From a virus (lineage: Duplodnaviria > Caudoviricetes), in the IMG/VR virus record IMGVR_UViG_3300046167_000801: a stretch of 64,000 nt of DNA, one strand, 5' to 3'. Below, piece after piece: positions 1 through 17,692 of this stretch. The notes below the pieces were generated by a model that made no database searches, had not been told where the DNA came from, and saw only the letters and a list, made by a program, of their open reading frames with translations. Within the stretch, counting starts at the first letter, position 1. Every line of letters starts with the position of its first letter. The position numbers and the translations under genes were made by a program.

Positions 1-516
1 AATATTTCTTGGACATCTGATGGTTATCCCGAATTTAATGGTAGTTCTAATTATATTGACATAGATAGTGTTACTTTAGGTAATGGTAGTTGGGCTATAG
101 AGGTTATTGTAAACGCACATAGTTCCAGTTATTCAATATTATCTAATAATTCGGGAGGTCCCGTTACAAACGCATTTGGGATATATGGTAATAAGATGCA
201 TTATAGAAATTATGATGGATCATGGAAAAACCACAACAGTAATATTACGGTAAACTATAATGAATATTATCATTTAGTATGGGTGAATAGGGGTTATAAC
301 TCTTCAATGGACCTTTACATAAACGGTGTTAAAGACAGTACCTCAGGATTTAATAGTTATACAACAAATGGTGGTCCTGTGAATAGTATAGGTAAAAGTT
401 GGAACGCTTATTTCGATGGTACCATACCTGTATTTAGAAGATACAATAATGAATTGTCAGATAATGAGGTATATCAAAATTATATCTCATTTAAAACACC
501 ATTTGGTTTAGATTAG
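1..516 (+). CDS. LamG/concanavalin A-like domain protein, 5'-truncated by the window edge
   Basis: Frame +1 is open from base 1 (NISWTSDGYPEFNGSSNYIDID...), so the Met at 196 is internal. FNGSSNYI, HLVWV, LYINGVKD and FRRYNNELSDNEVYQNY match the LamG_3 pattern. Confidence 0.8.
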   Translation, partial: NISWTSDGYPEFNGSSNYIDIDSVTLGNGSWAIEVIVNAHSSSYSILSNNSGGPVTNAFGIYGNKMHYRNYDGSWKNHNSNITVNYNEYYHLVWVNRGYNSSMDLYINGVKDSTSGFNSYTTNGGPVNSIGKSWNAYFDGTIPVFRRYNNELSDNEVYQNYISFKTPFGLD

Positions 517-554: not shown

Positions 555-1289
555 ATGGAGAACATAGGTTTCGGAATTATGTGCTTCGGTGATGATAAAT
601 ACTTCAAAGGAGCAAAGGATATTATAGACAACCTCACTAAGATGGGGTTTCCTTGTTATGTACTTACCGATAATGAAAACCACTTTTTAGAGAAGTATTG
701 GGGGAGGATAACCATAGTTCCTTATAAGAGAACATACAAATCATATTATGATAAGGTTCTTTTAGTAAAAGAAATTCATAGAGTTCACGACGTATGTATT
801 TTATTAGATGCCGACTTATACGTCAAAGATTACAATTTATTTGAGAGATTCAGAAATTACAACTTCAAAGACGGTGTTTCATATATAGATACCTTATGGA
901 ATCATAGTGCAAAATTTAAAACTGTAGGTGATATCCCAATGCAGGGAGATGAATGGTTAGAGTATAAAAATTATGCTAAATCGTTATATCCTAATATAGA
1001 TAACTTAGAAACACTTTGGGAATATTTTATTGTATTCAATAAAAGTGGTTTTAAAACTAATGATTTTTTTAAATCATATGAGAAATTACAAATAGTAAAA
1101 GAATATTGTGATTTAAGGTACAATAAAGATGTTTCGGGTGCTGGTGAAGGGGTATCCGTGTCCATTGCATGTAAATTGAATCAAATACCCATACAAAAAG
1201 ATTTAAAATTGGTTTCATTAACAAGTAATGTATTAAAACCCATCACAAGACATACTCCAAGTAGAGAAATACCTCATCACTTAAAATGA
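555..1289 (+). CDS. Putative GT-A fold glycosyltransferase
   Basis: DKVLLV...ILLDADL (DxD) pattern; first gene of the glycosylation island. Confidence 0.6.
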   Translation: MENIGFGIMCFGDDKYFKGAKDIIDNLTKMGFPCYVLTDNENHFLEKYWGRITIVPYKRTYKSYYDKVLLVKEIHRVHDVCILLDADLYVKDYNLFERFRNYNFKDGVSYIDTLWNHSAKFKTVGDIPMQGDEWLEYKNYAKSLYPNIDNLETLWEYFIVFNKSGFKTNDFFKSYEKLQIVKEYCDLRYNKDVSGAGEGVSVSIACKLNQIPIQKDLKLVSLTSNVLKPITRHTPSREIPHHLK

Positions 1290-2011
1290 TAACTAACCAA
1301 AATTACATAGAGTCCAATATAACTACAGATAATGGTGAAAAACTACCTTTTCTGTGGACACATGGTGCAACTAACAGTCATTTGGGTGATGGGATTGTTG
1401 TTTACTCCATGATACAACACATGAGATATAAAAATTGTGTTTGTATTGGAACGGGGGGTGGTTACATTCCGAGAATAATGACACAAGCAAGAATCGATCT
1501 ACATAAACAAGGAATTTTTGAAGGTAACCCCACGTATAGTTGGGGTGATATTGGAACAACATATGTTGTTGATCCTTGTAATGGTGTTGGTGGTGATAGT
1601 AATATATGTGATATGGAAGGTTTTTATCAGAAGACCTTCTTCCCAAGATTCATAAAGGAGACATCAGAAAAAGCGTATTATGATTTTTTTGTTAGAGAAG
1701 ATATCATGATTGATTTACTTTTTATTGATGGTGACCATTCGTACGAAGGTGTGAAGAAAGATTTTGATCTGTACTCAAAAAGGTTAAACCCCAACGGTTT
1801 AATAATGGTGCACGATAGTGATTCTTCATATTCCGAAACTTTAATTATATCTGAAGATTCTAAAAAAGATTTCTTCCCCTTCGATGGTCCTTCCAAGTTA
1901 GTAGAAGAGTTAAAAAATAACGATGAGTGGGTAGTAATGGACTTATTTAATTTCGGAAACATAAAAGATAAACCTTCCTCAACAGGAATAACAATAATTA
2001 AGAGAAAATGA
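1286..2011 (+). CDS. Class I SAM-dependent methyltransferase (Methyltransf_24-like)
   Basis: CIGTGGGY SAM-binding motif and IDLLFIDGDHSYEGVKKDF...GLIMVHD. Confidence 0.85.
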   Translation: MITNQNYIESNITTDNGEKLPFLWTHGATNSHLGDGIVVYSMIQHMRYKNCVCIGTGGGYIPRIMTQARIDLHKQGIFEGNPTYSWGDIGTTYVVDPCNGVGGDSNICDMEGFYQKTFFPRFIKETSEKAYYDFFVREDIMIDLLFIDGDHSYEGVKKDFDLYSKRLNPNGLIMVHDSDSSYSETLIISEDSKKDFFPFDGPSKLVEELKNNDEWVVMDLFNFGNIKDKPSSTGITIIKRK

Positions 2012-2862
2012 TAAGATTATTATGTGTTTTGGGTCATGGACATGAGTTATTACCCCATTTTATTGAACATTACAGTAAACATGTAGATGAATTACAATTT
2101 GTCATATATGAATCTGAAGCATCATCAAGAATACTAAGTAGGTCAAAACCAATAATTGAAAAATACGATAATTGTAAAATAGTAAAGGTGGTAAGAGATC
2201 GTGTTTTCGATTGGGAAAAAGTAACCATTCTCTATAATATGATTAAATCAAAGAAAAAGAATGATTGGTGGGTTATTGCAGATATAGATGAATTCCACGT
2301 ATATCCTTACAGTAACTTACGTGATATGATTAAAGAATGTGATGAAAATTTATGGTCGGTAGTTAGAGGTGGTTTTATAGATAGGGTCGGACCTAAAGGT
2401 GAGTTCCCTAAATTAGAAAGTTCGACACCCATATTTGAACAATTCCCATACGCAGGTTTTTTTAGGTATCCTATGAGTAATGCATGTCCCAACAAGATAT
2501 GTGTGGTAAAAGGTAATATTGAAATAACTAATGGTCAACATTATGCGAATATAGATGGTCATACCACTTGGAGGTGGCAAGGATGGACACATCCAATGAT
2601 TGCCCCATATAAAGAACATTCCGTACAAGTACACCATTTTAAATGGGATGAAACCTGTAAGAGTCGTATTAAAAAAGTGGTAGATGTTAACGAACCGTAC
2701 GCATATTCTAAAGAATATTTAAAACTTTATGATGAATTGAGAAAAACGAACTTCATAGTTAATCTTAAAAATAAAGACTACCTATTTTTAAAGTCAAGTA
2801 AACCAATCTACAGTTCATATAAACATTGGGATAAATTAATAAGAAAAATAATAAGTATATAA
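2008..2862 (+). CDS. Glycosyltransferase, GT2-like (Glyco_tranf_2_4/GT92-like)
   Basis: LLPHFIEHYSK and WWVIADIDEFHVY (DxDE); KICV, GQH and HHFKW motifs. Confidence 0.75.
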   Translation: MIRLLCVLGHGHELLPHFIEHYSKHVDELQFVIYESEASSRILSRSKPIIEKYDNCKIVKVVRDRVFDWEKVTILYNMIKSKKKNDWWVIADIDEFHVYPYSNLRDMIKECDENLWSVVRGGFIDRVGPKGEFPKLESSTPIFEQFPYAGFFRYPMSNACPNKICVVKGNIEITNGQHYANIDGHTTWRWQGWTHPMIAPYKEHSVQVHHFKWDETCKSRIKKVVDVNEPYAYSKEYLKLYDELRKTNFIVNLKNKDYLFLKSSKPIYSSYKHWDKLIRKIISI

Positions 2863-2864
2863 TC

Positions 2865-3092
2865 ATGGCAAAAAAACAAATAAAAACAAATATATCTTTT
2901 GAAGAAGAAAGATTAATCTTAGAAGAAAGAAAAGTTAAATCGTTAGAAAAAATTGCAAATACTTTGGATGCACTAACAATATGGTTTGAAGAAATAGACA
3001 AATCGGGTTGGGATGAAAGAATCCAATATTATATGCACGAATGGCATAAACACACTATACAAGATAATGACGAAGACGAAGAAGAAGAATAA
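2865..3092 (+). CDS. Hypothetical protein, 75 aa, acidic C-terminus
   Basis: Fills the gap in a co-directional operon. Confidence 0.6.
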   Translation: MAKKQIKTNISFEEERLILEERKVKSLEKIANTLDALTIWFEEIDKSGWDERIQYYMHEWHKHTIQDNDEDEEEE

Positions 3093-4491
3093 GATAGCGG
3101 TCATAGTCCCATACCGAGATAGGTATAGACAATTATTAAAATTTAAAGAAAAGATTGGTGAGTACTTGAGTGAAAACGGTATTGATTATGTTTTAATAGT
3201 GGTAGAACAGGATGATGCTAAATTATTTAATAGAGGTAAATTATTAAATATAGGATATAAAGAGGCAGTAAAATCAAATTGCAATTATGTGGTTTTTCAT
3301 GACATAGATATGATACCATTGAAAGTCGATTATTCATATTCGGATGTACCAATACACTTAGCCACTGATTTCTTATCTGAAGATAAAACCTTTAAGAGGG
3401 AGTTATATGATCAATATTTTGGGGGTGTTACCATATTTCCAATAGAGTCGTTTGAAATTATCAATGGTTACTCTAATGAATATTGGGGATGGGGTTTTGA
3501 AGATGACGATCTCTTCAAAAGATGTGTTGACAAGGGTATTCCGTATGATTTAAAATATGTAAATACACAAGGAGGTCCAAACTCGGCAATTAAATTTAAT
3601 GGTATGAACGCTTATTCTGAGGGATATGTAGATATCGATACAAGTGAAGATGATTTAACTATTATGGTTACAATCGACCCTGATGGAATTGTGTGTGATA
3701 CTGATCAATCGTACGATAGATATACCGCACTCTCTATTCCTAAATTAGATTTAACCATTAGTTACGATTCTTTTAGAAGATATAAGGTTTTAATGAAAGA
3801 TAATAATGATTGGTGTTATGTTGACAGTAAAATTGAAACCAACAGAAAAACAACTTTAGTTGTAACACTTAGTGTGGAAAGAAAGATCCTAACTATGTAC
3901 CAAGATTCCAAAGAGGTTGGGTCTATGAAATTTTCAAAGACTATACCTAAATGCATCAAAAAAGAGTTGTTTGTCGGATCAACTAATAAAGAAAAAGATT
4001 TATTTAAAGGTATTATATCACAGGTTGCGATTTATAATAAAATATTGAAATCGAAAGAAATAGAAGAAATATCAACCAACGAAAAGTACTCATTAACAAT
4101 GGATTTTGGCAAGTATGGATCTTCTCATGCTTTACGTCACTATTTCGATATGAAGTACATAAGTGAATATAGGGTCATGGATTTAGTCGATAGGGAAAAT
4201 TACTTACAATTAGAAAAATGTGAACTAGTACATTATACTTATGATATTGAACATATAATAAAGGTACCATTTAGGAGAACATCTTATTTTGAGATGTTAC
4301 CTCATGAGACCACCGGATATAAAAACGGTGTGTGGTCAGATATTAATATACGTTATAATCAACTTAGGTTTCATAACGAAATGGAAAAAGGGTTTAGAGA
4401 CCCTAATAAAGACGGTCTTTCTAATTTAGATTTTAAAATATGGAACAGGACCTCAAAAAATAATCAAATACATATAAATGTTGGGATATGA
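3067..4491 (+). CDS. GT7 (beta-1,4-galactosyltransferase-like) with an inserted LamG-like domain
   Basis: AVIVPYRDR, FNRGKLLNIG, FHDID, YFGGV, WGWGFEDDD and C-terminal LPH...DGLSNLDF. Likely start is the ATG at 3067 (MTKTKKKNK) rather than 3013. Confidence 0.9.
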   Translation: MTKTKKKNKIAVIVPYRDRYRQLLKFKEKIGEYLSENGIDYVLIVVEQDDAKLFNRGKLLNIGYKEAVKSNCNYVVFHDIDMIPLKVDYSYSDVPIHLATDFLSEDKTFKRELYDQYFGGVTIFPIESFEIINGYSNEYWGWGFEDDDLFKRCVDKGIPYDLKYVNTQGGPNSAIKFNGMNAYSEGYVDIDTSEDDLTIMVTIDPDGIVCDTDQSYDRYTALSIPKLDLTISYDSFRRYKVLMKDNNDWCYVDSKIETNRKTTLVVTLSVERKILTMYQDSKEVGSMKFSKTIPKCIKKELFVGSTNKEKDLFKGIISQVAIYNKILKSKEIEEISTNEKYSLTMDFGKYGSSHALRHYFDMKYISEYRVMDLVDRENYLQLEKCELVHYTYDIEHIIKVPFRRTSYFEMLPHETTGYKNGVWSDINIRYNQLRFHNEMEKGFRDPNKDGLSNLDFKIWNRTSKNNQIHINVGI

Positions 4492-5873
4492 GTCATAAAT
4501 TAGGAATATGCATACCATATAGAAACAGGGAATCACACTTGAATGAGTTATTACCTAAATTAGATAAACATCTAAATAAACAGGGTATAGAGTACTGTGT
4601 TTATGTTGGGCATCAAGTAGATGATAAACTATTCAATAGAGGTGCAATGAAGAATATTGCTGCTGTTAAAGCAATGGAAGACGGTTGTGATTATGTTGCA
4701 TTTCATGATGTTGATATGTTACCTCATGATGAGACATGTGACTATTCATATCCCTATGATACTCCGACACATATTGCAACAAAATTATCAAAATACTCAT
4801 GGTCTATGGGTTATGAACAATATTTTGGAGGTGTCGTACTTTTCAATAAAGAACATTTAGTACAAACAAATGGGTATTCTAACAACTATTGGGATTGGGG
4901 ACAAGAGGATGATGATTTATTTTGGAGATGTTTCTATGAAGGACATTCTGATAGAAAAATATATGAAACTATTGAAGATAAAGAAGTACATCTATTTAAT
5001 GGTGAAACATCATCATTAACTTTTAAATCACATAGAGGTTTAACCACACCTTTGTTTAGAGATCACACCATCTCTATATTAGTTTCACCTGAACAACAAC
5101 CTGAAGTTGTACCAATATGGTTAGTGGGTGATGAAGAAAGAAAATTTATAGAATATCCCATACTAAGAAAAGACGGAAGTTGGACTTGGGGGATATCGTT
5201 TAACAATTCAAGAGCATTATCGATACTGAATCACGATAAGATAAACAATCCGTTATATCACTGGTCAAAGGCGGTAGAGAATAAATGGACATGGTTCACC
5301 GTTTCATATAAACACGATGAACAAAAGTTGTACATATTTTCAAATAATAAATTAGTTTCTAATAATGGAGATGTTCTTAAATCTAAACCCATTGATCTAC
5401 CAGATAAAATAAGATCTCACTCATTGATGGGTGATTTTAATATTGGTAGATGTAATCACCAAAATACCAATTTTAAGGGTAAGGTTGCAGAATTAAAAAT
5501 ATACGATAGATTCTTCGACACATTTGAAGAGTGTAAATTAAATAATGAAAATATCATATACGACATGAACAATGATGAAGATAGTATAAAAAATGATGTG
5601 GAATTACAGAAAGAGACTATCGAAATTGATGAAAGTATCTTACCATATAGACGAGAAGGTAAATTTTATTGTTTACCACATTTAGATGAAGGTTTAGTGA
5701 ATGGAAGGTGGGCTAAAGGTGAAACTACCGCAAGAAATGAAAAAAGATTTGTCACTGAAATGCAACAAGGTAAGTTAGATTATAAAACTGATGGTATTAA
5801 TAGTTTAAAATATGAACTAGTTGAAACTATCCAACATACAGAAAAATGTAAAATCTTTAATGTTAAGTTATGA
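4488..5873 (+). CDS. GT7 paralog with an inserted LamG-like domain
   Basis: ICIPYRNR, FNRGAMKNI, FHDVD, YFGGV, WDWGQEDDD and C-terminal LPH...DGINSLKY. Confidence 0.9.
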   Translation: MSHKLGICIPYRNRESHLNELLPKLDKHLNKQGIEYCVYVGHQVDDKLFNRGAMKNIAAVKAMEDGCDYVAFHDVDMLPHDETCDYSYPYDTPTHIATKLSKYSWSMGYEQYFGGVVLFNKEHLVQTNGYSNNYWDWGQEDDDLFWRCFYEGHSDRKIYETIEDKEVHLFNGETSSLTFKSHRGLTTPLFRDHTISILVSPEQQPEVVPIWLVGDEERKFIEYPILRKDGSWTWGISFNNSRALSILNHDKINNPLYHWSKAVENKWTWFTVSYKHDEQKLYIFSNNKLVSNNGDVLKSKPIDLPDKIRSHSLMGDFNIGRCNHQNTNFKGKVAELKIYDRFFDTFEECKLNNENIIYDMNNDEDSIKNDVELQKETIEIDESILPYRREGKFYCLPHLDEGLVNGRWAKGETTARNEKRFVTEMQQGKLDYKTDGINSLKYELVETIQHTEKCKIFNVKL

Positions 5874-7246
5874 GTGAGTTACTATCCAACATAAAGAAAC
5901 AACTAGACCAAAAGGGTAGAGGTTTTTGTGCTGCAAAGTGGACACAAGTAACTATACATTTAGGTACGGGGTTAACACATTCATGTCACCACCCCAACCC
6001 ACATAAAATTGGTTTAGCCGAATTAAGAAATAACCCATCGGCACTACACAACACACAACACAAAAAGAGGGCTCGTAAACAAATGTTGGAAGGTGAAAGA
6101 CCTAGTGAGTGTGATTATTGTTGGAAGATCGAGGACAACTCAAACTCATTCTCAGACAGGGTATTTAAATCTTCAGAGTCATGGTCAGCACCATACATAG
6201 AAGAAATTAAAGAATACGGATGGAGAGGTAATTATAATCCAAAATATGTTGAGGTTTCTTTCTCAAACGTATGTAATTTTAAATGTGCGTATTGTGGACC
6301 ACAATTCTCATCGAAATGGGTGAATGAGATAAATAAAAATGGTGCTTATAAATTATCGTATGATTATAATGATACGGAACATTTAAAAAAGAAAAATGAA
6401 ATGCCAATTCATCATAATGATTTTAATCCATATGTTGAGGCGTTTTGGAAATGGTTCCCTGATTTGTATCCTGACCTACACACATTTAGGGTGACGGGAG
6501 GTGAACCACTACTATCATCAGACACTTTTAAGTTATTGGAATATATACAAAATAACCACGAAGTAAATCCTAACCTATCGTTAGCCATAAACACAAATTT
6601 AGGTGTGAGTGATGATATCATTGATAGGTTCATCAATATCATAGAAGATTTAACAGAAAACAATAAAGTAAAGGAGTTTATTGTTTTTACATCAATCGAA
6701 GCAACCAAGTCACAAGCAGAATATCTGAGGTATGGGTTAGATACTAGTAAATTTTGGACTAATGTTGAGAAAATACTTAGTAAGTTACCAAAAGTGACTA
6801 TTAATATAATGTCAACATACAACGCATTATCTGTATTCACATATGATGATTTAATTGATAGAGTATTTGATCTGAAAAGAAAATACCAAAATAATGAAAG
6901 GTATTGGGTGTCTGCAATACAATTAGACACATCATACATACGACACCCTAAACACCTGTCAGTTAAAATTTTAGAGGATAATCATAAAGAATTGATTTTA
7001 CAATCAGCTAAAAAAATGTTATATTATGGTATGAAGGAATTCACTCATGATAATTATGGGTTTTCTACCGTAGAAATACAAAAATTAAAACGAACATATG
7101 ATTACGCAATTAGTACGGACGACTTCGACGTTGAAACCAACAGGAAGGATTTCGTTAAATTCGTTGATCAGTACGATAAAAGACGAAAATTAAATTTTTT
7201 GGACACATTTCCACAACTAAAAGAGTTCTATGTTAAAAATCAATAA
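5870..7246 (+). CDS. Radical SAM protein with N-terminal twitch-like Cys cluster
   Basis: CNFKCAYC (CxxxCxxC) and TGGEP; N-terminal FCAAKW...SCHHP...CDYCW. Confidence 0.9.
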   Translation: MSELLSNIKKQLDQKGRGFCAAKWTQVTIHLGTGLTHSCHHPNPHKIGLAELRNNPSALHNTQHKKRARKQMLEGERPSECDYCWKIEDNSNSFSDRVFKSSESWSAPYIEEIKEYGWRGNYNPKYVEVSFSNVCNFKCAYCGPQFSSKWVNEINKNGAYKLSYDYNDTEHLKKKNEMPIHHNDFNPYVEAFWKWFPDLYPDLHTFRVTGGEPLLSSDTFKLLEYIQNNHEVNPNLSLAINTNLGVSDDIIDRFINIIEDLTENNKVKEFIVFTSIEATKSQAEYLRYGLDTSKFWTNVEKILSKLPKVTINIMSTYNALSVFTYDDLIDRVFDLKRKYQNNERYWVSAIQLDTSYIRHPKHLSVKILEDNHKELILQSAKKMLYYGMKEFTHDNYGFSTVEIQKLKRTYDYAISTDDFDVETNRKDFVKFVDQYDKRRKLNFLDTFPQLKEFYVKNQ

Positions 7247-7814
7247 AGGGGAACCTTGGATATTTTGGCCTAATAGTATTTGTGAAACATTTCCTGAAGA
7301 TGCGGGAAACAAAATACTATCCAATAAATTAAATTACACCTTAGAAGTTGATTTTGTATTAACAGATGAGAGTGATTTGGAGAAAACTCTATTTGCATTA
7401 GTACCAAGGTATATGGGTTTAAATATTAACCCTACTAATATCTCATTTACAATCACTTTTCAAGATGATGTAGAATATTATACCTTAGAACATATGGTGG
7501 TCCCTAATCAACTAACTAATATTAAATTAAATCACATTTATAAAGATAGGTTTGAATTGTTTTTAAATGGTGAAGTAATATTAAATGTTGATTTGAGTGA
7601 AAGGGAATTAGGTTTAGACCACTCACCTCACATAATTTTTGGTGCGGGTAACTTCCCTAAGAATAAAACGAATACAAATTATACTGAATTTGAGTTTCAT
7701 AAGTTTAAACTAATAACAGATGGTAAATTAATATCTGAACATACGTTTGAGGAATTTATACATAACAAATCAGTAGATATTTCAGGGAATTGTAATTTCC
7801 TACATAAAATTTAA
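7230..7814 (+). CDS. Stand-alone LamG-like beta-sandwich protein
   Basis: Beta-rich with FELFLNGEVI and IIFGAGN; resembles the inserts in the GT7 genes. Confidence 0.5.
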   Translation: MLKINKGEPWIFWPNSICETFPEDAGNKILSNKLNYTLEVDFVLTDESDLEKTLFALVPRYMGLNINPTNISFTITFQDDVEYYTLEHMVVPNQLTNIKLNHIYKDRFELFLNGEVILNVDLSERELGLDHSPHIIFGAGNFPKNKTNTNYTEFEFHKFKLITDGKLISEHTFEEFIHNKSVDISGNCNFLHKI

Positions 7815-7831
7815 AATTATAATATAAAATA

Positions 7832-9400
7832 ATGAGTATAGATGCAAGAAAACCCGGTGAAACATTTCTCGAATATCGAGATCGGGTAATTAACAAAATT
7901 TCACCTTCATTTTGTGGGGCTAAATGGTATAATGCAACGATATGGTTAGGTAACGGGGCAACAACAAGTTGTCATCACCCACCGTCACATAAGATACCAC
8001 TAACAGATCTTGAAAAATCGTATAAAGCAATCCATAATACCACATATAAGAAGGCGGTACGTAAACAAATGTTGGAGGGTGTACGTCCAAAAGAATGTGA
8101 TTACTGTTGGAGAATAGAAGATTTGGGGAAAGATATGATTTCTGATAGAACACATAAATCAGTCATTTACACTGATAAAGAATTGGTTGATGCCAAGGAA
8201 AAGTTAGGTGCAAGTGAAGATGTGGATCTAAGGACTTTAGAAATTTCGTTTGATCCTGTATGTAACTTTGCTTGTTCATATTGTAACTCATCGTTTTCCA
8301 CAACATGGCAAAAAGACATCAATAAGAATGGTCCCTACCAAAATCTGGTAAGTGATGGTGCGGGTGCATTTCAACATAATGGTGACCATGCAATGCCTTA
8401 TGGAAAATTAAATTTAAAAAACCCCTATGTCGACGCATTTTGGAAATGGTGGGAGGGTGAATTACAACACTCATTACGAGAGTTAAGGGTAACAGGTGGT
8501 GAACCATCAATGTCCCGTAATTTTTGGAAATTAATGAAGTGGTGGGAAACAAACCAAAACTCAGAAATTGATTTTGCAATAAACTCTAACTTGGGTATAA
8601 GTGATAAAATAATGGACGCACTTATTAAGTATAGTCACAATGTTAAATCATTTCACATTTATACAAGTTGTGAAGCGTATGGAACTCATGCGGAATATAT
8701 TAGAGACGGATTAGATTGGAGGAAGTGGTTAAAAAATGTAGATAGAATATTAGATGAGGGAAATATTAAATCACTTAATATGATGTTAACAATAAACTCA
8801 TTATGTCTTTTTAGTTTACCTGAGTTTATGGATGAAATGATGAAAATTAAAAGAAGACATAAATCCTCATCACCTGTATGTTCTTTTAACATTCTAAGAT
8901 TCCCGTCATTTCAATCAATTGTGACATTACCAATGCAAATGAGATTAGAAAGGGCGGATGCACTCGAAAAATGGATCGAGGACAATTACACTGATGGTTC
9001 TAACTATTTTATGGATTGGGAGCGTGATGGTATGGTCCGTTTAATCAACTATCTAAGAAATACTGAGGAAGGTCATGACCATACATCATCTATAGAGACT
9101 AGAGAACGGGATTTTAAATCATTTTACAAACAATATGATAAACGTAGAGGTAAAAATTTCTTAGAAACGTTCCCTATGTTAAAAAAGTGGTGGGATTTGA
9201 TACCTGACACAAATATCAAGGAGTTGGAGACAACATTAAATGGTGATGATACTAAACATAATAAATATGTTAATGAAGTACTCACCATCGCTAAGGAAGA
9301 AGGTTGGGTTTTAGAACCTCAGTGGGCTAATCCTGGTGCACAAGATTATGTTGAATCCCCTGAGGAGATAAACATACTTGACTACATTAAAAAATTATAA
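7832..9400 (+). CDS. Radical SAM protein with twitch-like cluster (paralog of 5870-7246)
   Basis: CNFACSYC, TGGEP, FCGAKW...SCHHP...CDYCW, and a shared C-terminal YDKRR..NFL.TFP.L. Confidence 0.9.
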   Translation: MSIDARKPGETFLEYRDRVINKISPSFCGAKWYNATIWLGNGATTSCHHPPSHKIPLTDLEKSYKAIHNTTYKKAVRKQMLEGVRPKECDYCWRIEDLGKDMISDRTHKSVIYTDKELVDAKEKLGASEDVDLRTLEISFDPVCNFACSYCNSSFSTTWQKDINKNGPYQNLVSDGAGAFQHNGDHAMPYGKLNLKNPYVDAFWKWWEGELQHSLRELRVTGGEPSMSRNFWKLMKWWETNQNSEIDFAINSNLGISDKIMDALIKYSHNVKSFHIYTSCEAYGTHAEYIRDGLDWRKWLKNVDRILDEGNIKSLNMMLTINSLCLFSLPEFMDEMMKIKRRHKSSSPVCSFNILRFPSFQSIVTLPMQMRLERADALEKWIEDNYTDGSNYFMDWERDGMVRLINYLRNTEEGHDHTSSIETRERDFKSFYKQYDKRRGKNFLETFPMLKKWWDLIPDTNIKELETTLNGDDTKHNKYVNEVLTIAKEEGWVLEPQWANPGAQDYVESPEEINILDYIKKL

Positions 9401-11221: not shown

Positions 11222-12700
11222 ATGAATCTAGTTTATAATGAAATATTTGTGTACGACACTCAAGGTCGACCTGAGTTTGTAAGTTCAAACCTCCCATCAT
11301 ATAATATTCACCCATGGCACACCCACCCACTACTAACTGAACACGATCGTGATGGTAATTATGAATTTATTAATATATTAAGTGATAAGTTAGGTATTGT
11401 ATTTCCCTATAAAAGAACTGGTGATGAGAGTAAAGAGATAATGGATCACTTTCACTGCTTGAGGAGTCAAAGTTTTGAGGTTTTTTTAGATCATGACGTT
11501 TTTAGACACAAAATTTATACGTTAGATGATATAAAAACGGATAATCCCGATATCAAATATATATACCCAATTGTTTTATACAATAACGAATTGTTTGATG
11601 CGTATAGTACGGTTGATATAGATCCTAAAATAATCGAGGACTCGAAAAGTGGTAAATGTAAAATATGTTTTTTACAACCTACAGAAGGTTTCTTTGGTCA
11701 AGATGACCATAATTATGTGTGGTTTGATAATTTATCTAAAAAATATGGTTTAGATAAAACTAATCTCTATATGATTACAACTAATTTAATTGCAAAAAAA
11801 CGTAAAGAGTTTTTAGAGACGAATGGTCACATAACAAAAGATTCATATACTATATTAGATTACACATATTTTGGTTGTAATCTATGGTTTCATGAGCCAG
11901 GTCAAATAACTGACCCTAAATGTGAGATAGGTGGAAGGGAGAAACTATCTGATTTTATCAAATCATCACTTACAAAAAGAAAAAAATACCATTTCTTAAA
12001 TTTCAATAGGGTGCCCAAACTACATAGGGTTTTAATTTACGGATTATTAAAAAGTCACGATATTTTTGAGGGTAAATTCATTTCATCCTTGGGTGGACTT
12101 CGTACAAATAATCCAGATGAGTATTTGAATTGGGTTGATCAAAGTGTACCTAAGGAGTATAATGATAAATGGAAAAACACCATTAAAAATTACTACAGGA
12201 ATCACGATGCGAGAGAACACTATTGGTACGATGAACCTGACTTGGAAAATAATAAGGCAATGAATTTAAATATGAAAGCACATACGGATTCATTTGTAAA
12301 TATCGTGTCTGAATCATTAACTCATGAAACGACGGTATTTTTCTCAGAGAAAATATACAAACCCATATTTGTTGCTCAACCATTTATATTGGTGGGTAAC
12401 CCCAGGTCGTTAGAGGTTTTACGAAGTCAAGGATACAAGACATTTTCTAAATGGTGGGATGAGAGTTATGATGAAGAACTTGACTACTATAAAAGGATGA
12501 ATAAAATTTTTGATGTAATGAAAGAAATTGCGTCTTGGGATATGGAAAAGTGTTTTAAGATAACTCAGGAGATGTTACCTAATCTATTACATAACTTCAA
12601 TGTCTTAATGAAGGGTCAAACACTACAAGATCTATTTAAAGAAATAGACCCTTCACACACAAAAAAACAATATACAAAAACCCATAAAACGATAATTTAA
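11222..12700 (+). CDS. Putative glycosyltransferase-like protein (GT10-like C-terminus)
   Basis: FLNFNRVPKLHR and NIVSES...FFSEKIYKPIF..QPFILVG...LRSQGYKTF..WWDESYD. Confidence 0.6.
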   Translation: MNLVYNEIFVYDTQGRPEFVSSNLPSYNIHPWHTHPLLTEHDRDGNYEFINILSDKLGIVFPYKRTGDESKEIMDHFHCLRSQSFEVFLDHDVFRHKIYTLDDIKTDNPDIKYIYPIVLYNNELFDAYSTVDIDPKIIEDSKSGKCKICFLQPTEGFFGQDDHNYVWFDNLSKKYGLDKTNLYMITTNLIAKKRKEFLETNGHITKDSYTILDYTYFGCNLWFHEPGQITDPKCEIGGREKLSDFIKSSLTKRKKYHFLNFNRVPKLHRVLIYGLLKSHDIFEGKFISSLGGLRTNNPDEYLNWVDQSVPKEYNDKWKNTIKNYYRNHDAREHYWYDEPDLENNKAMNLNMKAHTDSFVNIVSESLTHETTVFFSEKIYKPIFVAQPFILVGNPRSLEVLRSQGYKTFSKWWDESYDEELDYYKRMNKIFDVMKEIASWDMEKCFKITQEMLPNLLHNFNVLMKGQTLQDLFKEIDPSHTKKQYTKTHKTII

Positions 12701-12714
12701 AGACATTAAAACAC

Positions 12715-12743
12715 TTTACTAATACGTCATTTTATTATACATT
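12715..12743 (+). promoter_or_regulatory. Putative promoter TTT-N20-TACATT
   Basis: Variant of the recurring motif, upstream of 12768. Confidence 0.4.
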
Positions 12744-12767
12744 ATATGTATTAAATACATGTAAAAT

Positions 12768-13947
12768 ATGAACGTAGGATTTATTGGAGTTGGTAAACTC
12801 GGAAAAGACGCGGCCGAAGTAATGGCGGAGAAACATAACGTCGTTGGTTATGACATAACTGAAGTACAACCAGATAACTTTAGAATGGTCCCAACAATTA
12901 AGGATGTTTGTGAAGGTGGTAGAGAACTAATTTTCATTGCTGTTCCAACACCACACCATCCAGACTATGATGGAAGATACCCAACATCACATTTAGAAAA
13001 TAAGGATTTTAATTACGACATAGTGAAAGAAGTTCTAACGGAGGTAAATAAATATGTCTCTAAAGATCAACTCATTGTCTTAATCTCAACAGTCCTACCT
13101 GGTACTATTAGACGAGAATTTATTGACTTAATACCAAATGGTAGGTTTATATATAATCCATATCTAATTGCAATGGGTACTGTAAAATGGGATATGGTAA
13201 ATCCTGAAATGATTATCATCGGAACAGAAGATGGTTCCGAAACGGGAGACGCGAAATTACTATTAGACTTTTATAAAACATTTATTACTGAAGGTACGAG
13301 GTATGAACTTGGTACGTGGGATGAAGCCGAAGGAATTAAAATATTTTACAATACGTTTATATCGACCAAAGTCGCACTGGTTAACATGATTCAAGACGTT
13401 GCTGAAAAATCGGGTAACATTAATACTGATGTTATTACAGGAGCACTTGAAAGATCCACATATAGAATTTTAGGACCCGCATATATGAAAGCAGGAATGG
13501 GAGATGGTGGAGGATGTCATCCTCGTGATAATATCGCATTAAGATACATGGCCCAAGAATTGAATTTAGGGTATGACTTATTTGATGCGATTATGTTAGC
13601 AAGAGAAGTACAAGCAAAAAACATTGCAACTAAGTTAGTTGTTGAATCAAATAAACGTAACCTACCGATTATTATATTAGGTCAATCATATAAACCTGAC
13701 GTAGAGTATTTAGATGGTTCTTCATCTATTCTTGTTGGTCATTACTGTGAATCTTCGTATGGTAGGTAAATACAAAGTACAGTATGATTTAGAGACCCCA
13801 ATTAAAGGAATTTACTTATTGGGACATATGGGTAAACACCATGATTATGATTTCCCTGATGGGTCGGTAGTGGTGGATCCGTGGAGATCATATAAGACAG
13901 AAAAAGATATTAAGGTTATTCATTACGGAAATACTCGAATTGGATAA
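12768..13947 (+). pseudogene. UDP-glucose/GDP-mannose dehydrogenase family gene split by a frameshift (12768-13769 plus C-terminal part to 13947)
   Basis: GFIGVGKLG Rossmann motif, YNPYLIA, KIFYNTFIS, GDGGGCHPRD and SYKPDV. The C-terminal VVVDPWR domain lies in the +1 frame after GGTAGGTA at 13761-13768. This may be a real lesion or an assembly error. Confidence 0.8.
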
Positions 13948-14626
13948 TATGAAAAATAAGATTTGGTTCTTTGGTGACAGTTTCACTTATGGTGATGGGT
14001 GTGTTGAAGATCGACCACCTAATGGGGAGTATTATAAACTAAAACCACATGGTGTGTTATGGAGAAAAGGTGTTGCGGACCATTTTAATATGAATGAAAT
14101 TAATAGATCGATAGGTGGGGCATCTAATGATTGGATAATTAATTCATTAATCGACGAGTTACTAAACATACAACCTAATGACATTGTTGTGGTCGGTTTA
14201 TCATGGTCGGAAAGGTTTCAACTGATCGATAAGAAAAGTGGTAAATATATGAATTTTTTACCTCAGGATTTTATTAACCATACAAGTGAGGACACCCCCT
14301 TAGTACTTGATGAGGATGATAGTAGATATAATGTGGAATTATTTAATTCATTGAAAACGGTTTTGGTTGAGTATAGAGTACAACACGGTGAAATATTAAA
14401 AAAATATCAGTATGAACAAGCGTTAAAAATATTAAAAAAATTAGAACAATTTGGTGTTAGATTTTTACTATGGGATCTTAAAGATGTTCAGTTTCGTTAT
14501 GAATCAATTGATCATGAAATGGGTAATGGTGATTACCATTGGTCATGGAAAGGACATGAGGGTTGGATGTTAAAATGTATTGAGTTATTAGAAAATAATA
14601 AAAATGAATATATGTGTAAAGATTAA
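13940..14626 (+). CDS. SGNH/GDSL hydrolase-like protein
   Basis: IWFFGDSFT, GGASND and DYHWSWKGH. Confidence 0.75.
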   Translation: MDNMKNKIWFFGDSFTYGDGCVEDRPPNGEYYKLKPHGVLWRKGVADHFNMNEINRSIGGASNDWIINSLIDELLNIQPNDIVVVGLSWSERFQLIDKKSGKYMNFLPQDFINHTSEDTPLVLDEDDSRYNVELFNSLKTVLVEYRVQHGEILKKYQYEQALKILKKLEQFGVRFLLWDLKDVQFRYESIDHEMGNGDYHWSWKGHEGWMLKCIELLENNKNEYMCKD

Positions 14627-14641
14627 ATAACACAAACTATT

Positions 14642-16303
14642 ATGTATGCAATCGGGATCTCATCTTATTATCACGACTCGTCTTTATGTTTATTTAAAGA
14701 CGGGAAATTAATATTCGCGTGTGAAGAAGAGAAATTCACGGGAGTAAAACATGACTATAGTTTTCCTAAGAAAGTACTAAACTATGTTACAAAAAAGTAT
14801 TCTTTAACAAAGGAAAATGTAGAGGTGGTTTGTTTTTATGAAGATGTTGAGTTGAAAAGTCAAAGAGTTAAAGAATACTCAAAAAAACAATTACTAACCA
14901 AACCCTTATTATCAATTAGAAGAGTATGGGAATCTTATAGAAATAGACGAGAGTTAAAAAAACTACTACCTAATATTTCTGATAATATTTTTTTCTCAAA
15001 ACATCATCATTCACACTTATATTATTCATCATTTAGTTCTCCTTATAAAACCTCCGCAGTAGTTTCTATTGATGGTGTAGGAGAATACGACACAACAACC
15101 ATATCCAAATACGATGGGGGGGTTTTAGATGTTGAAACCATTTCATCTTACCCACATTCTTTAGGTTTGTTTTATTCTGCAATGACCTCATTCTTAGGGT
15201 TTAGACCAAACGAGGGTGAATACAAAGTTATGGGATTAACATCTTATGGGAATAAAACTAAGTTGGTTGGGAAGGTCAGTAAATTAATAAAATTCGAAAA
15301 CGGAGAAATAAAATGTAATTTAAAATATTTTAATTGGCATAAGTCAGATAAAATTATGTACAACTATGAGTTATCTGAATTATTGGGTTTGTTACCAAGG
15401 ACTCCTGACGAAAAAATAAAAAAAATACATAAGGATTTAGCATATGCGGTTCAACATGTTTATGAAAAGGTGTTGTTTGATCTTTTGGATTATGTTGGTA
15501 AAAAGTATCGGACTAGTAATTTATGTTTGGGTGGTGGATGTGCGTATAATGGGTTGGCGAATGGTAAGATATATCGAAACACTGGATTTAGGAAGGTATG
15601 GGTACCACCAGCACCATCTGATGCAGGGTCCTCTATAGGTTCTGTAATTAATTATTATATTAACAACGGGACAAATGTTGAGATACCCAATACCCCGTTT
15701 TTGGGTCCATCGTACACCGTAAATTCAAAATCCAAGAAACAGTTGGGTGATAGGAAGACCATGTATCTTAGTAATAAAAATTTATATAGAATAGTTGCCA
15801 AACAAATAAGAAAGGGTAAAGTCGTCGGTTGGTTTAGGAATGAAATAGAATTTGGTGCAAGAGCATTGGGGAATAGATCAATTTTAGCCGACCCTACAAA
15901 CCCTAAAATGAAGGATAGAATAAATAAAATGGTAAAAAGGAGGGAAGGATTTAGACCTTTTGCACCTATGGTAACTAAAGAAAGACAACATGAATATTTT
16001 ATAATGAATGACGATTTGAGATATATGAATCAAGTTGTTGAGGTTCGTGACCGATATAGGGATGTTCTTGTCTCCACAACCCATGTTGACGGTACCGCAC
16101 GAGTACAAACAGTTTATCATGATAATGACATACATAATCTTTTAAGGGAATTCGAGTTTTTAACGTCACACCCTGTACTGTTAAACACATCATTCAACAT
16201 TAAAGATAAGACAATGGTCTTAACCCCTAAAGACGCATTAGATACTTTTGACTCAACAGACATTGATGTATTAGTCTTAAATAATATCGTAATTTTTAAA
16301 TAA
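14642..16303 (+). CDS. Carbamoyltransferase (NodU/CmcH family)
   Basis: YHDSS, EEEKF..KHD..FP, DGVGE, GEYKVMGL, PAPSDAG, EFGARALGNRSILADP, FRPFAP, HVDGTARVQT and LNTSFN. Confidence 0.95.
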   Translation: MYAIGISSYYHDSSLCLFKDGKLIFACEEEKFTGVKHDYSFPKKVLNYVTKKYSLTKENVEVVCFYEDVELKSQRVKEYSKKQLLTKPLLSIRRVWESYRNRRELKKLLPNISDNIFFSKHHHSHLYYSSFSSPYKTSAVVSIDGVGEYDTTTISKYDGGVLDVETISSYPHSLGLFYSAMTSFLGFRPNEGEYKVMGLTSYGNKTKLVGKVSKLIKFENGEIKCNLKYFNWHKSDKIMYNYELSELLGLLPRTPDEKIKKIHKDLAYAVQHVYEKVLFDLLDYVGKKYRTSNLCLGGGCAYNGLANGKIYRNTGFRKVWVPPAPSDAGSSIGSVINYYINNGTNVEIPNTPFLGPSYTVNSKSKKQLGDRKTMYLSNKNLYRIVAKQIRKGKVVGWFRNEIEFGARALGNRSILADPTNPKMKDRINKMVKRREGFRPFAPMVTKERQHEYFIMNDDLRYMNQVVEVRDRYRDVLVSTTHVDGTARVQTVYHDNDIHNLLREFEFLTSHPVLLNTSFNIKDKTMVLTPKDALDTFDSTDIDVLVLNNIVIFK

Positions 16304-16422
16304 TGTTTAGAAAAATAATTAGATGGTTTAAGGACCGAAAAGAAAAGAAAAAAAGAGAGTTAAGATATAAGGAAAAAATAGAGAGGTTAAAAAAACAAGA
16401 CCCATTTACCTATAAGCATTAG
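16303..16422 (+). CDS. 39-aa basic microprotein MFRKIIRWFKDRKEKKKRELRYKEKIERLKKQDPFTYKH (not in ORF track)
   Basis: Its ATG overlaps the carbamoyltransferase stop (TAATG) and it exactly fills the gap to 16424. Confidence 0.75.
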   Translation: MFRKIIRWFKDRKEKKKRELRYKEKIERLKKQDPFTYKH

Positions 16423-16423
16423 T

Positions 16424-17692
16424 ATGAAAGTAATTCACACATACATAGACAAACAAAACTTAATATGGAAAGAGTTATTATACACTCAATATTTAAGTGC
16501 CATTTTAGCCAAAAAACATTATGGAAGTATAAGTTTCTACGGTGATGAAATTTCATGTAAACAAATAAAAGATATTGGCATACCTTACGATGAGATAAAT
16601 CATGACATACTCGTCAAAGGAGATACGGACACGTGGAGTATTCCAAAAATAAAGGTATATGAATCAATAAAAGAACCTTTTCTTCATATTGATACCGACA
16701 CATTACTCTTTAATAAAATATTATTGGATAGATATGATAGTGACTATATTTTTAGTCACAGGGATATGTTTATTGATGGTAAGGGTGAGACACTCAAGAA
16801 CCTTTTTATTTATTGGTTTTGTAATTTGGATGAAAAGGAGATGGATCAAAATAAATACCCTTTTAGATCCTTAGTGAAAGACAGTAACAATAAGATACCT
16901 AAAATAATTTTAGAAAAAACGTCAAAAGATATGGATTACCCCCATGTCGATAGAACTTACAGTAAATTGTTCTTCGATTTGATGGAAAATATGAGTGATA
17001 AGGTCTTTGATGAAGTTCACTTTGAATCTATACCAAACATGAACATTACGTACGTAAGAAACCATGAAACCTTTGGTAAAGTATGTAGGGAAACCCTAAA
17101 TCATTATTATTCAAATAAAAAAAGGATAGACGATGAGGTTTACGGTTCTTGTTATATAGAACAACTAATGTTACACACAAATTTAAGATTGCATGATAAA
17201 AAATATAAAAAATCAAGTAAGAAAGGGAACAATTTCGTATTTGATGATATACCCTTATCAATCGTAGACGCTCACAATAACGTACCTGATATTAATAGTG
17301 TAAAGTTTCCATTTAAACTAAAAGTAAACAATAATGATCATTTTAAATTTGATTGTTGCGACCGCGTGATAATATCCCCTCTATCTAAAACCAAAAAAAA
17401 ACCTGATGACTCCTATGAATTAATTATTAATGATATTGATGACATTAAAAATTATTTTGATCATGAGTTTAATGGTTTTTTTCATACCACATATATGAAA
17501 TGGTATGATATTATACAAGTTATCATAATTGACAAACTAAGAAAGGAGATCGGAGATGACGAGATAAGGAGAATACATGACTATTTTAGAAAACATTACC
17601 CTTCAAGAGGATTACCAACTACTTCCAACGGAGAAAGACTCTACACAAGACTTACCGGGTTTAAATTTCATGGAACCACATCATTAATTTAG
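16424..17692 (+). CDS. DUF6734-like putative GT-A fold protein
   Basis: LSAILAKKHYG...IPYDEI...WSIPKIKVY...PFLHIDTD (DxD). Confidence 0.6.
   Translation: MKVIHTYIDKQNLIWKELLYTQYLSAILAKKHYGSISFYGDEISCKQIKDIGIPYDEINHDILVKGDTDTWSIPKIKVYESIKEPFLHIDTDTLLFNKILLDRYDSDYIFSHRDMFIDGKGETLKNLFIYWFCNLDEKEMDQNKYPFRSLVKDSNNKIPKIILEKTSKDMDYPHVDRTYSKLFFDLMENMSDKVFDEVHFESIPNMNITYVRNHETFGKVCRETLNHYYSNKKRIDDEVYGSCYIEQLMLHTNLRLHDKKYKKSSKKGNNFVFDDIPLSIVDAHNNVPDINSVKFPFKLKVNNNDHFKFDCCDRVIISPLSKTKKKPDDSYELIINDIDDIKNYFDHEFNGFFHTTYMKWYDIIQVIIIDKLRKEIGDDEIRRIHDYFRKHYPSRGLPTTSNGERLYTRLTGFKFHGTTSLI

Follow-up and report, generated by a model that had tools for sequence, protein, structure and literature searches.

The animal enzymes beta4GalT1 and beta4GalT7 (structures 1tvy, 1nf5, 3lw6 and 4irq) build a GT-A fold in which some five residues lie between the elements ..SRP and ..G-x-x-R-M-I-R-H. 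Polypeptide GalNAc-transferases (GT27) carry a GT-A domain and an acceptor-steering ricin-type lectin in one chain, and virus-encoded glycosylation systems are known for the capsid and tail tube of mycobacteriophages, the chlorovirus PBCV-1 capsid and the mimivirus fibrils. While accessory lectin domains are usually appended to a catalytic domain, we describe here an uncultured large marine phage with two neighbouring GT7 (beta4GalT-type) genes, A and B, in which a LamG-like domain of about 230 residues takes the place of those five residues, spliced into the GT-A core beside the mobile lid. The genes lie in a stretch of 64,000 nucleotides that was analysed as a whole (the window). Searching the published literature on GT7 with laminin G and phage, we found no description of this architecture, nor is the split GT7/LamG arrangement mentioned in PMC12619734, which reports four core glycosyltransferase groups in the moraphages, jumbo phages of Flavobacteriia.

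A first-pass annotation of the window had proposed two tandem GT7-like enzymes, each interrupted by a LamG domain, and Pfam, AlphaFold models and VIA-align all bear this out. Gene A (plus strand, 3013/3067-4491) encodes a GT7 core with an internal LamG/pentraxin-like jelly roll; the ATG at 3067 is the favoured start because of the relatives and of a JGI gene call of 474 amino acids that matches it with 100% identity. Gene B (plus strand, 4488-5873), whose frame overlaps that of A by 4 nt, encodes a GT7 core with an internal LamG-like jelly roll. The N-terminal core part of A (3067-3561; residues 1-165 from the ATG at 3067) holds PYRDR, FNRG, HDIDM (the DxD), Y-FGGV and WGWGFEDDD; it is followed by the LamG/pentraxin-like insert (3562-4266; residues ~166-400), placed by Pfam Laminin_G_3 and VIA-align, and by the C-terminal core part (4267-4491; residues 401-474) with P-x-RR, F-x-x-L-P-H413, N-Q-L-R-F, DGLSNL and the stop codon. 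The same three parts make up B: an N-terminal core part recognised by Pfam (4488-4955; residues 1-156) with PYRNR, FNRG, HDVDM, Y-FGGV and WDWGQEDDD, a LamG-like insert placed by VIA-align (4956-5642; residues ~157-385), and a C-terminal core part (5643-5873; residues 386-461) with P-Y-RR, F-Y-C395-L-P-H398, N-E-K-R-F, DGINSL and the stop codon. In both proteins the insert sits between the EDDD helix and the strand bearing the metal-binding His. The limits first suggested for the inserts, 3560-4260 and 4960-5640, agree with these structure-based ones, and every motif quoted with them is present, A reading WGWGFEDDD, IKFNG, GIISQVAIY, PFRRTSYFEMLPH and DGLSNL, and B reading WDWGQEDDD, HLFNG, GKVAELKIY, PYRREGKFYCLPH and DGINSL.

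The GT7 core is recognised on both sides of the insert. Pfam assigns Glyco_transf_7N (4e-21 in A, 3e-21 in B, 75 bits in each) and Glyco_transf_7C (1e-17 in A, covering profile positions 11-60 of 78 only; 3e-18 in B, profile 2-60; 64-66 bits), all above the curated cutoffs of 27 bits for GT7N and 23 bits for GT7C. phmmer comparisons with beta4GalT7 and beta4GalT1 gave 7e-30 to 1e-28 (A against Drosophila beta4GalT7, 3lw6: 7e-30), and a profile built from A, B and a family of compact, uninterrupted GT7-like proteins matched beta4GalT1 over its full length at 3.5e-62, so that A and B belong to CAZy GT7 by catalytic-domain similarity. AlphaFold2 models (A: pLDDT 93.8, pTM 0.88; B: pLDDT 92.3, pTM 0.85) predict for both paralogs one continuous GT-A/GT7 core into which a beta-sandwich is inserted. 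When aligned with VIA-align to bovine beta4GalT1 (1tvy_A), the A model superimposed with Z 26.3 over 218 residues (model 2..474 on chain 174..398) and the B model with Z 28.5 and rmsd 1.9 over 217 residues (model 1..461 on chain 178..398); this match of the predicted models across both halves of the core far exceeds anything expected by chance. The part after the insert came out only with VIA-align and with a profile made from the C-terminal piece: Foldseek alone limited the beta4GalT alignment to the N-terminal 155 residues, the full-length hhalign alignment ended at the insert, and a phmmer search of the PDB with just the last piece of B returned nothing meaningful. By contrast, hhalign matched the post-insert piece of A to the C-terminal 77 residues of the compact family with a probability of 98.2% (E 3.6e-14). 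The C-terminal piece thus completes the fold in the predicted models of A and B, including the segment of strand, His, lid and helix, and it carries the His.

The two proteins also keep the characteristic residues of GT7: the metal-binding DxD, the lid His, the catalytic Asp of EDDD and the Trp of the WGWG loop. These are D79-I-D81, W142, E145-D146-D147-D148 and H413 in A, and D74-V-D76, W137, E140-D143 and H398 in B, all invariant or at least 90% conserved in our alignments, and we take them, through the alignment, to be the equivalents of bovine beta4GalT1 D252/D254, W314, D318 and H347. Among A-type sequences H78-D79-x-D81, Y117-F-G-G, W142-G143, E145-D146-D148 and H413 vary little or not at all, the corresponding positions of B are conserved too, and the motifs of the N-terminal core part are at least 97% conserved across 68 A orthologs. 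In B, 66 positions reach at least 97% conservation across 68 orthologs, in support of its N-terminal core part, and C395 and H398 are invariant in 37 orthologs. Since both proteins retain the full set of DxD, Tyr before FGG, WGWG loop, EDDD base, lid His and N-x-x-R-F, both are probably active. By analogy with beta4GalT1, in which one mutagenesis result reportedly underlies the donor argument (Ramakrishnan and Qasba 2002), the retained Tyr before FGG points to a donor that carries a hexose and not a HexNAc.

The inserts align to LamG-like domains in both proteins, as initially proposed. The A insert scores 37.7 bits (E 2.8e-9) against Laminin_G_3 (PF13385), above the cutoff of 27.6 bits, and all relatives of A among the matches listed carry PF13385; the B insert stays below the cutoff at 24.2 bits (4e-5), so that the sequence profile assigns A alone to the family. 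Both models nevertheless display the two-sheet jelly roll of about 200 residues that defines the LamG/Concanavalin A-like clan (CL0004). VIA-align matched the A insert (about residues 171-400) to the PAPP-A LamG-like domain 8a7d_C with Z 21.6 over 199 residues and the B insert (residues 164-384) to PAPP-A LamG with Z 18.6-18.7; pentraxins were matched with Z 18-20 by the A insert and Z 16-20 over both inserts, and a putative carbohydrate-binding protein of Bacteroides ovatus (4dqa) with Z 20.8 (A) and 17.9 (B). No conserved Ca-site pattern was seen in the inserts. A circular permutation was considered because a DLSG-x-x-N-x-G motif lies near the end of the insert and not at its start; the insert aligns in sequential order to PAPP-A and pentraxin domains. 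The inserts vary far more than the cores that surround them, with a mean pairwise identity of 43% versus 62% in A and 41% versus 70% in B, and only 5-7% of their positions are invariant, among them a polar and aromatic set in B (N239, N240, S241, K261 and W267).

The first-pass annotation had placed both inserts at the same site, and the site is indeed shared, but not through two independent events. In a tree of 68 distinct loci A and B are reciprocally monophyletic (SH-aLRT 100) and the insert is retained in both paralogs at every locus; a single insertion preceded a single ancient duplication, and the common site therefore reflects shared descent. Relatives are encoded on at least 580 IMG/VR contigs of up to 335 kb, and in the ESM Atlas the clusters that show the split architecture are viral throughout (100% Viruses), most often Uroviricota. 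The architecture is restricted to phages, among which we know no cultured carrier, as A had no blastn or tblastn match in 50,697 GenBank phage records; neither A nor B nor the small protein encoded ahead of them (see below) has a family in PHROGs or NCBIfam. Scanning GTDB genomes yielded only three full-length loci, two on separate contigs of a single Flavobacteriales MAG and the third on a Lachnospiraceae-MAG contig, a scan whose sensitivity is low because its peptide patterns came from A only and which is not evidence that bacteria lack the family. The view that GT7 is known mainly from eukaryotes, also part of the first-pass annotation, needs qualifying, since thousands of insert-free compact GT7-like proteins of about 220 amino acids occur in metagenomes and giant viruses.

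A and B are embedded in a conserved module in the order methyltransferase, GT2-like protein, 75-residue protein, A, B and twitch radical SAM enzymes, whose members recur in 77-84 of 90 related loci. It begins with a class I SAM methyltransferase (Methyltransf_24; plus strand, 1286-2011; PF13578, 2.8e-12), a homolog of which occurs in 82 of the 90 loci at a median offset of -1.8 kb from A. Next comes a GT2_4-like (GT-A) protein of 284 amino acids (plus strand, 2008-2862; PF13704, 1.2e-6) that had no match in a PDB sequence search and is present in 84/90 loci, in one of which (L009) it lies after B. The helical 75-residue protein with an acidic tail (plus strand, 2865-3092), whose last 26 nt are shared with the start of A, is encoded in 80/90 loci; its median identity (62%) exceeds that of A, a core of about 45 residues being very highly conserved. 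It belongs to no Pfam family, the Atlas clusters closest to it, with scores of 0.93-0.94 that are no more than a lead, come without exception from Uroviricota, and co-folding with A and B, in which it was the scored partner, returned 0.00, a value that is uninformative on binding. Of the 85 loci that match the A1 profile at all (window included), 80 carry A and then full-length B, mostly with the 4-nt overlap, and most of the other five break off directly 3' of A. Directly 3' of B lies a radical SAM enzyme (plus strand, 5870-7246) with CX3CX2C at CNFKCAYC, assigned to phrog_14086 and matching PF04055 at 1e-6 (29.3 bits, just under the cutoff of 29.5); it had no match in a PDB sequence search, falls into Uroviricota Atlas clusters named twitch-domain radical SAM and recurs in 77/90 loci. 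Its paralog (plus strand, 7832-9400; PF04055, 3e-8) likewise finds matches in 77/90 loci, which in several of them are the same ORF as the match of the first. Genes for fibres (Peptidase_S74) and for LamG_3 proteins adjoin the module in loci L007 and L009 and in the window at 1-513, the three contexts inspected for fibre genes. The wider window also encodes a UDP-glucose dehydrogenase-like protein, a carbamoyltransferase and further glycosyltransferases, and, about 42 kb from the module, a long thymidylate-synthase homolog (47575-48597).

Taken as a whole, the explanation that we favour, with somewhat more confidence than doubt, is that A and B are a paralogous GT7 pair acting on the glycan of a phage structural protein by means of an acceptor-holding LamG insert; here we infer that the two are active, which donor and acceptor they use, in what order they act and what the insert does. 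Both would be cytoplasmic, metal (Mn)-dependent inverting glycosyltransferases of the beta4GalT type (GT7, GT-A), derived from an ancestor that received one complete LamG/pentraxin-like beta-sandwich, in the strand leading into the His-bearing hinge of the mobile lid, before its gene was duplicated. By analogy with beta4GalT1, the donor would be a UDP-hexose without an N-acetyl group, from which a beta-linked sugar would be added onto a sugar already present. A and B may then extend a short glycan, itself further modified, in two successive steps; the carrier of this glycan would most likely be a structural protein of the phage, from its fibres or its decoration, that is produced inside the infected cell. 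The proximity of fibre genes in three contexts is circumstantial as a pointer to a structural-protein target; phage-encoded transferases do glycosylate mycobacteriophage virions (Freeman et al. 2023, as cited in PMC12619734). The internal LamG domain, at the lid hinge on the acceptor side, would hold or select the acceptor, the fast-evolving insert of A possibly meeting a variable substrate and that of B, with its invariant Asn/Ser/Lys/Trp set, a constant one such as the product of A. Such putative acceptor selection is plausible, being favoured only by context and by the faster evolution of the inserts, which relaxed constraint would fit as well as substrate tracking does. An extension of this idea, which we consider doubtful, would make the insert a built-in counterpart of alpha-lactalbumin at the lid hinge that forms part of the acceptor site only when the lid is closed and dictates the acceptor; A and B would then be a two-step, lectin-gated machine writing a defined glycan on phage fibres, and the A insert a swappable specificity cassette drawn from the LamG pool of receptor-binding proteins.

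It is equally doubtful that the insert is just a structural or oligomerisation module, self-associating like a pentraxin or serving as a handle at an assembly site, with the GT7 core alone setting specificity. Its best matches, pentraxins and the LamG-like modules of PAPP-A, do work through protein-protein contacts, few of its positions are invariant, and free-standing LamG proteins related to it are encoded nearby in many loci; however, it is kept in both paralogs at all 68 distinct loci, the lid hinge would be an unusual location for a mere handle, and the invariant polar and aromatic set in B resembles sugar-binding sites. That LamG-type domains commonly bind carbohydrate, as the match to 4dqa illustrates, also fits an explanation that we rate as unlikely, though a shade above the previous one, namely that the module acts on cytoplasmic lipid-linked precursors of a host capsule or O-antigen-like polysaccharide, to which the inserts would bind, with seroconversion, superinfection exclusion or easier release of progeny as the outcome. 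Serotype-altering phage glycosyltransferases are a classical class (Markine-Goriaynoff et al. 2004, as cited in PMC12619734) and the wider window has nucleotide-sugar genes, but A and B lack a membrane anchor or signal sequence, the conserved core includes no flippase, polymerase or Gtr-type membrane partner, and module composition is unchanged on the contig binned with the Lachnospiraceae MAG, where envelope glycans would differ greatly from those of Flavobacteria.

The other genes of the module invite two further explanations. The 75-residue protein, with its helical, leader-like core and variable tail rich in Lys, Thr, Pro and Asp, could be a peptide substrate tailored by the radical SAM enzymes, the methyltransferase and the glycosyltransferases, which we regard as improbable. 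A small gene in 80/90 loci that overlaps the start of A, a nearly invariant core followed by a variable C-terminal tail, up to five radical SAM genes after B in L009, some with SPASM matches, and the occurrence of twitch radical SAM enzymes with a conserved small protein in one operon would all suit such a pathway. Yet the tails have no Cys and share no core motif beyond a KPKDPT-ING that recurs in some, no protease, exporter or RRE-type recognition protein belongs to the conserved core, and the nearly invariant helical hairpin of 45 residues resembles a structural partner more than a leader; twitch radical SAM enzymes, moreover, are known to act on sugars too, BtrN being an example. Very improbable indeed is glycosylation by A and B of hydroxymethylated pyrimidines in phage DNA as a way of evading restriction: we know of no DNA glycosyltransferase in GT7, the retained N-x-x-R-F motif of the beta4GalT acceptor lid suggests a sugar acceptor, the module has fibre and structural genes around it in each of the three contexts examined, and the thymidylate-synthase homolog that might speak for it is remote from the module, even if phages encode a diverse range of DNA-decorating glycosyltransferases (Pyle et al. 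2024, as cited in PMC12619734).

If A and B do extend a virion glycan, the consequences could reach host recognition, particle stability and evasion of grazing or immunity. The pair is the hallmark of a module of six to seven genes that hundreds of large, uncultured phages carry, in aquatic habitats and elsewhere, and because the module is so widespread its product is probably a common phage feature. A and B also represent a natural experiment in building acceptor specificity into the beta4GalT scaffold, a workhorse of chemoenzymatic glycan labelling; should they prove to be merely ordinary glycan-extension enzymes, they would still provide a clean annotation for thousands of metagenome calls now named "hypothetical" or "beta-1,4-galactosyltransferase 1".

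Set against described systems, A and B share with the animal beta4GalTs the whole-core GT-A fold (Z 26-28, 31-34% identity over 217-218 residues) and the motif order PYR-R, FNRG, D-x-D, Y-FGG, WGWG-EDDD, lid His, N-x-x-R-F and DGL-x-L, but as predicted cytoplasmic phage proteins they lack a membrane stem, and the site that aligns to Met344 of beta4GalT is an invariant Cys in B and variable in A. Their closest uninterrupted relatives are the compact GT7-like proteins of ~215-230 amino acids (e.g. Mimivirus LCMiAC01 A0A481YZG5), which are 35-42% identical to the A and B cores (profile comparison: N part, E 8e-78; C part, E 3.6e-14); unlike A and B, these have no insert, their strand ..G-l-x-i-x-R-R-x-G-x-F-x-S-L-P-H runs on continuously, and they are not seen as a conserved tandem pair. 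Virion glycosylation systems, like the module, bring together cytoplasmic glycosyltransferases, methyltransferases and sugar-modifying enzymes near structural genes; none is reported with an internal-LamG GT7, and for A and B virion glycosylation is only what we infer. GT27 enzymes likewise join a GT-A catalytic domain and a lectin-like domain in a single chain, but theirs is a C-terminal beta-trefoil on a flexible linker, whereas A and B hold a LamG jelly roll inside the GT7 catalytic domain. In lactose synthase (beta4GalT1 with alpha-lactalbumin; 1nf5, 4l41), whose structures are the best matches of the A and B models, a module beside the closed lid changes acceptor specificity, and it is where this lid begins that the insert of A and B is joined to the core; alpha-lactalbumin, however, is a separate protein of lysozyme fold that binds reversibly, whereas the module of A and B has a LamG fold and is covalently inserted.

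The ORF of GT7-LamG gene A spans 3013-4491 on the plus strand, and its start at the ATG at 3067, as placed by the first-pass annotation, is also the start in the relatives and in a JGI gene call (474 aa, 100% identical). Its tandem paralog B (4488-5873, plus strand) shares 4 nt with the end of A, in a window of ~32% G+C in which one strand carries nearly all genes, and full-length identity between the two proteins is 29%. Pfam searches returned Glyco_transf_7N in both (E 4e-21 in A, 3e-21 in B), then Glyco_transf_7C (1e-17 and 3e-18), whose match ends at profile position 60 of 78 in A and B alike, and then Laminin_G_3, above the cutoff in A (37.7 bits) and below it in B (24 bits). All sequence motifs cited in the first-pass annotation were found in the two proteins.

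AlphaFold2 models were built from an alignment of 51 relatives for A (mean pLDDT 93.8, pTM 0.88) and from 37 B orthologs for B (pLDDT 92.3, pTM 0.85). Foldseek alone limited the beta4GalT match to the N-terminal 155 residues; the cores were compared using VIA-align, which copes with the long gap of the insert. Residues 2-474 of the A model matched bovine beta4GalT1 (1tvy_A, 174-398) over 218 aligned residues with a Z of 26.3, and residues 1-461 of the B model matched it over 217 residues (Z 28.5, rmsd 1.9 Å), so that the predicted continuous GT-A core with an inserted beta-sandwich emerges in confident models of both paralogs, with alignments that cross the insert and reach the model end. The LamG-like character of the middle segment was likewise borne out, as the LamG-like module of PAPP-A aligns with A 171-400 (Z 21.6) and B 164-384 (Z 18.7), and pentraxins match the middle parts of A and B at Z 16-20. 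In the models, beta-strands flank the insert (in A, at 161-166 and 395-400). Moreover, the post-insert A-type profile matches the last 77 residues of uninterrupted GT7-like proteins of ~220 aa (98.2% probability, E 3.6e-14), pairing vP-RR-G-F--L-He with l--rr-g-f-SLpH of the compact proteins, and when A and B are added to the compact family, the resulting profile covers the full length of human and bovine beta4GalT1 (3.5e-62). As modelled, the GT7 fold is completed by the C-terminal piece after the insert.

The first-pass annotation had both paralogs split at the same site, and this shared site stands; its explanation is common descent. Among 85 loci with a match to the A1 profile, the window included, 80 have a full-length B-type gene immediately after the A-type gene, the two in most cases overlapping by 4 nt, and most of the remaining five are cut off just past A. 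When 68 distinct A/B pairs were placed in a maximum-likelihood tree, an A clade separated cleanly from a B clade (SH-aLRT 100), and the shared site therefore points to one insertion followed by one old duplication. Judging from the sequences, both copies have been retained since.

The split architecture recurs widely. In a protein database clustered at 90%, 3417 relatives were found at E <= 1e-3, and the best 120 of these all have the same three Pfam domains and ~470 aa. An exhaustive search of 50% clusters yielded 5604 related clusters (137 at E <= 1e-30), several dozen of them full-length with the insert and many others compact (~220 aa) and without it. Encoded relatives occur on at least 580 viral contigs in IMG/VR, many of 100-335 kb; in the ESM Atlas, clusters with the split layout are assigned entirely to Viruses (100%), chiefly to Uroviricota; and UniProt contains at least one member, A0A2E0BNI5, named by domain only. 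No match to A was found in 50,697 GenBank phage records by blastn and tblastn, and BFVD gave matches solely to compact GT7 proteins of giant viruses or to proteins with LamG alone. The three GTDB matches comprise two contigs binned with a Flavobacteriales MAG and one binned with a Lachnospiraceae MAG. The GT7-LamG architecture is a new form within a well-known enzyme family and is widespread in uncultured large phages. An ESM Atlas fold search also returned a Uroviricota cluster of 495-aa GT7N plus GT7C proteins without a LamG Pfam match, of which only 225 residues aligned to the A model, yet across residues 4-474; this cluster may represent related proteins in which the insertion site is occupied by another domain or by a very divergent one.

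A and B are embedded in a module (1286-9400, plus strand) whose parts recur in fixed order in 77-84 of 90 related loci: Methyltransf_24 (82 loci), a GT2_4-like gene (84), a 75-aa helical protein (80), A, B and a radical SAM gene (77), the last with a paralog in many loci. The order is unchanged in locus L003, whose contig was binned with a Lachnospiraceae MAG. Both radical SAM paralogs of the window (5870-7246 and 7832-9400, plus strand) have the CX3CX2C cluster, preceded by an N-terminal Cys/His motif, FC-A-KW ... G ... CHHP; the Atlas names the family "twitch domain-containing", and no sequence relatives were found in the PDB. In another related locus, L009, five radical SAM genes follow B in a row (11665-17422), some with SPASM matches. 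Many loci also harbour a free-standing LamG gene of ~240 aa located 1.4-2 kb downstream of B and matching the insert profile at 30-60 bits (for example L011 13262-14017, L021 12906-13622 and L054 13346-14113). The window has no such gene downstream of B, although its truncated ORF at 1-513 gives a hit to that profile (E 8e-7). The insert could derive from such free-standing LamG genes, whose products could alternatively serve as a partner or substrate. Elsewhere in the window (47575-48597, plus strand) lies a 340-aa thymidylate-synthase homolog (phrog_160, 2e-105) that is longer than typical ThyA.

We propose that A and B would act sequentially as Mn-dependent, inverting UDP-hexose transferases extending a glycan that the remaining module genes would start and tailor. 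Neither a signal peptide nor a membrane segment was detected in A or B. In the window, a 3443-aa fibre-like protein is encoded downstream of the module; in the two other loci inspected, L007 and L009, the module adjoins fibre genes (Peptidase_S74, Gly_rich_2) and LamG_3 genes. Other viruses offer a precedent for glycosylating virions. Because the enzymes would be cytoplasmic, and in view of these neighbours and this precedent, the acceptor is most likely a phage structural protein. Further sugar genes surround the module in the window (UDP-glucose dehydrogenase-like, carbamoyltransferase); remodelling of host envelope glycans is an unlikely function for it, and glycosylation of DNA by A and B is scarcely to be expected. 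The 75-aa protein (2865-3092, plus strand), whose 3' end overlaps the start of A, could in principle itself be the product, a peptide tailored by the module. It belongs to no known family that we could find and has a ~45-residue core (LLE-RKVKALEKIANSLDALT-WFEEIDK-EW--R-QYYL) that hardly varies among 61 distinct relatives and is flanked by a variable N-terminus and a variable Lys/Thr/Pro/Asp-rich tail, its conservation exceeding that of the surrounding enzymes; we consider this peptide-product scenario improbable.

With a structural protein as the favoured acceptor, the role of the insert can be considered by analogy with beta4GalT1, where the lid builds the acceptor site. The insert site corresponds to the beta4GalT1 strand ..GMS(I/V)SRP|NAV.G..R.IRH, just ahead of the lid His, which in the beta4GalT family ligates Mn and starts a long mobile lid. 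Since the insert is attached at the hinge of this lid, it probably takes part in acceptor recognition. In both clades the insert has evolved faster than the core: mean pairwise identity is 43% in the insert versus 62% in the core within the A clade, and 41% versus 70% within the B clade. The insert of B retains an invariant set (N239, N240, S241, K261 and W267); a purely structural insert appears unlikely.

Both paralog groups conserve the H-D-x-D motif, the WGWG loop, E-D-D-D with the presumed base and the lid His, a catalytic set indicating that A and B are likely active enzymes. A profile alignment places N-x-x-R-(F/Y) of A and B opposite NPQRF in the lid of beta4GalT1. The same set includes the Tyr ahead of FGG, which never varies in B and is conserved to at least 97% in A; by analogy with Tyr289 of beta4GalT1, which reportedly (Ramakrishnan and Qasba 2002) governs donor choice between hexose and HexNAc, it would favour a hexose over a HexNAc donor. 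Counting back from the lid His, the position of Met344, which we take to be a metal ligand of beta4GalT1, is occupied by an invariant Cys in B (C395), is variable in A-type proteins and is Ser in the compact relatives, and the Cys of B may reflect a different metal preference.
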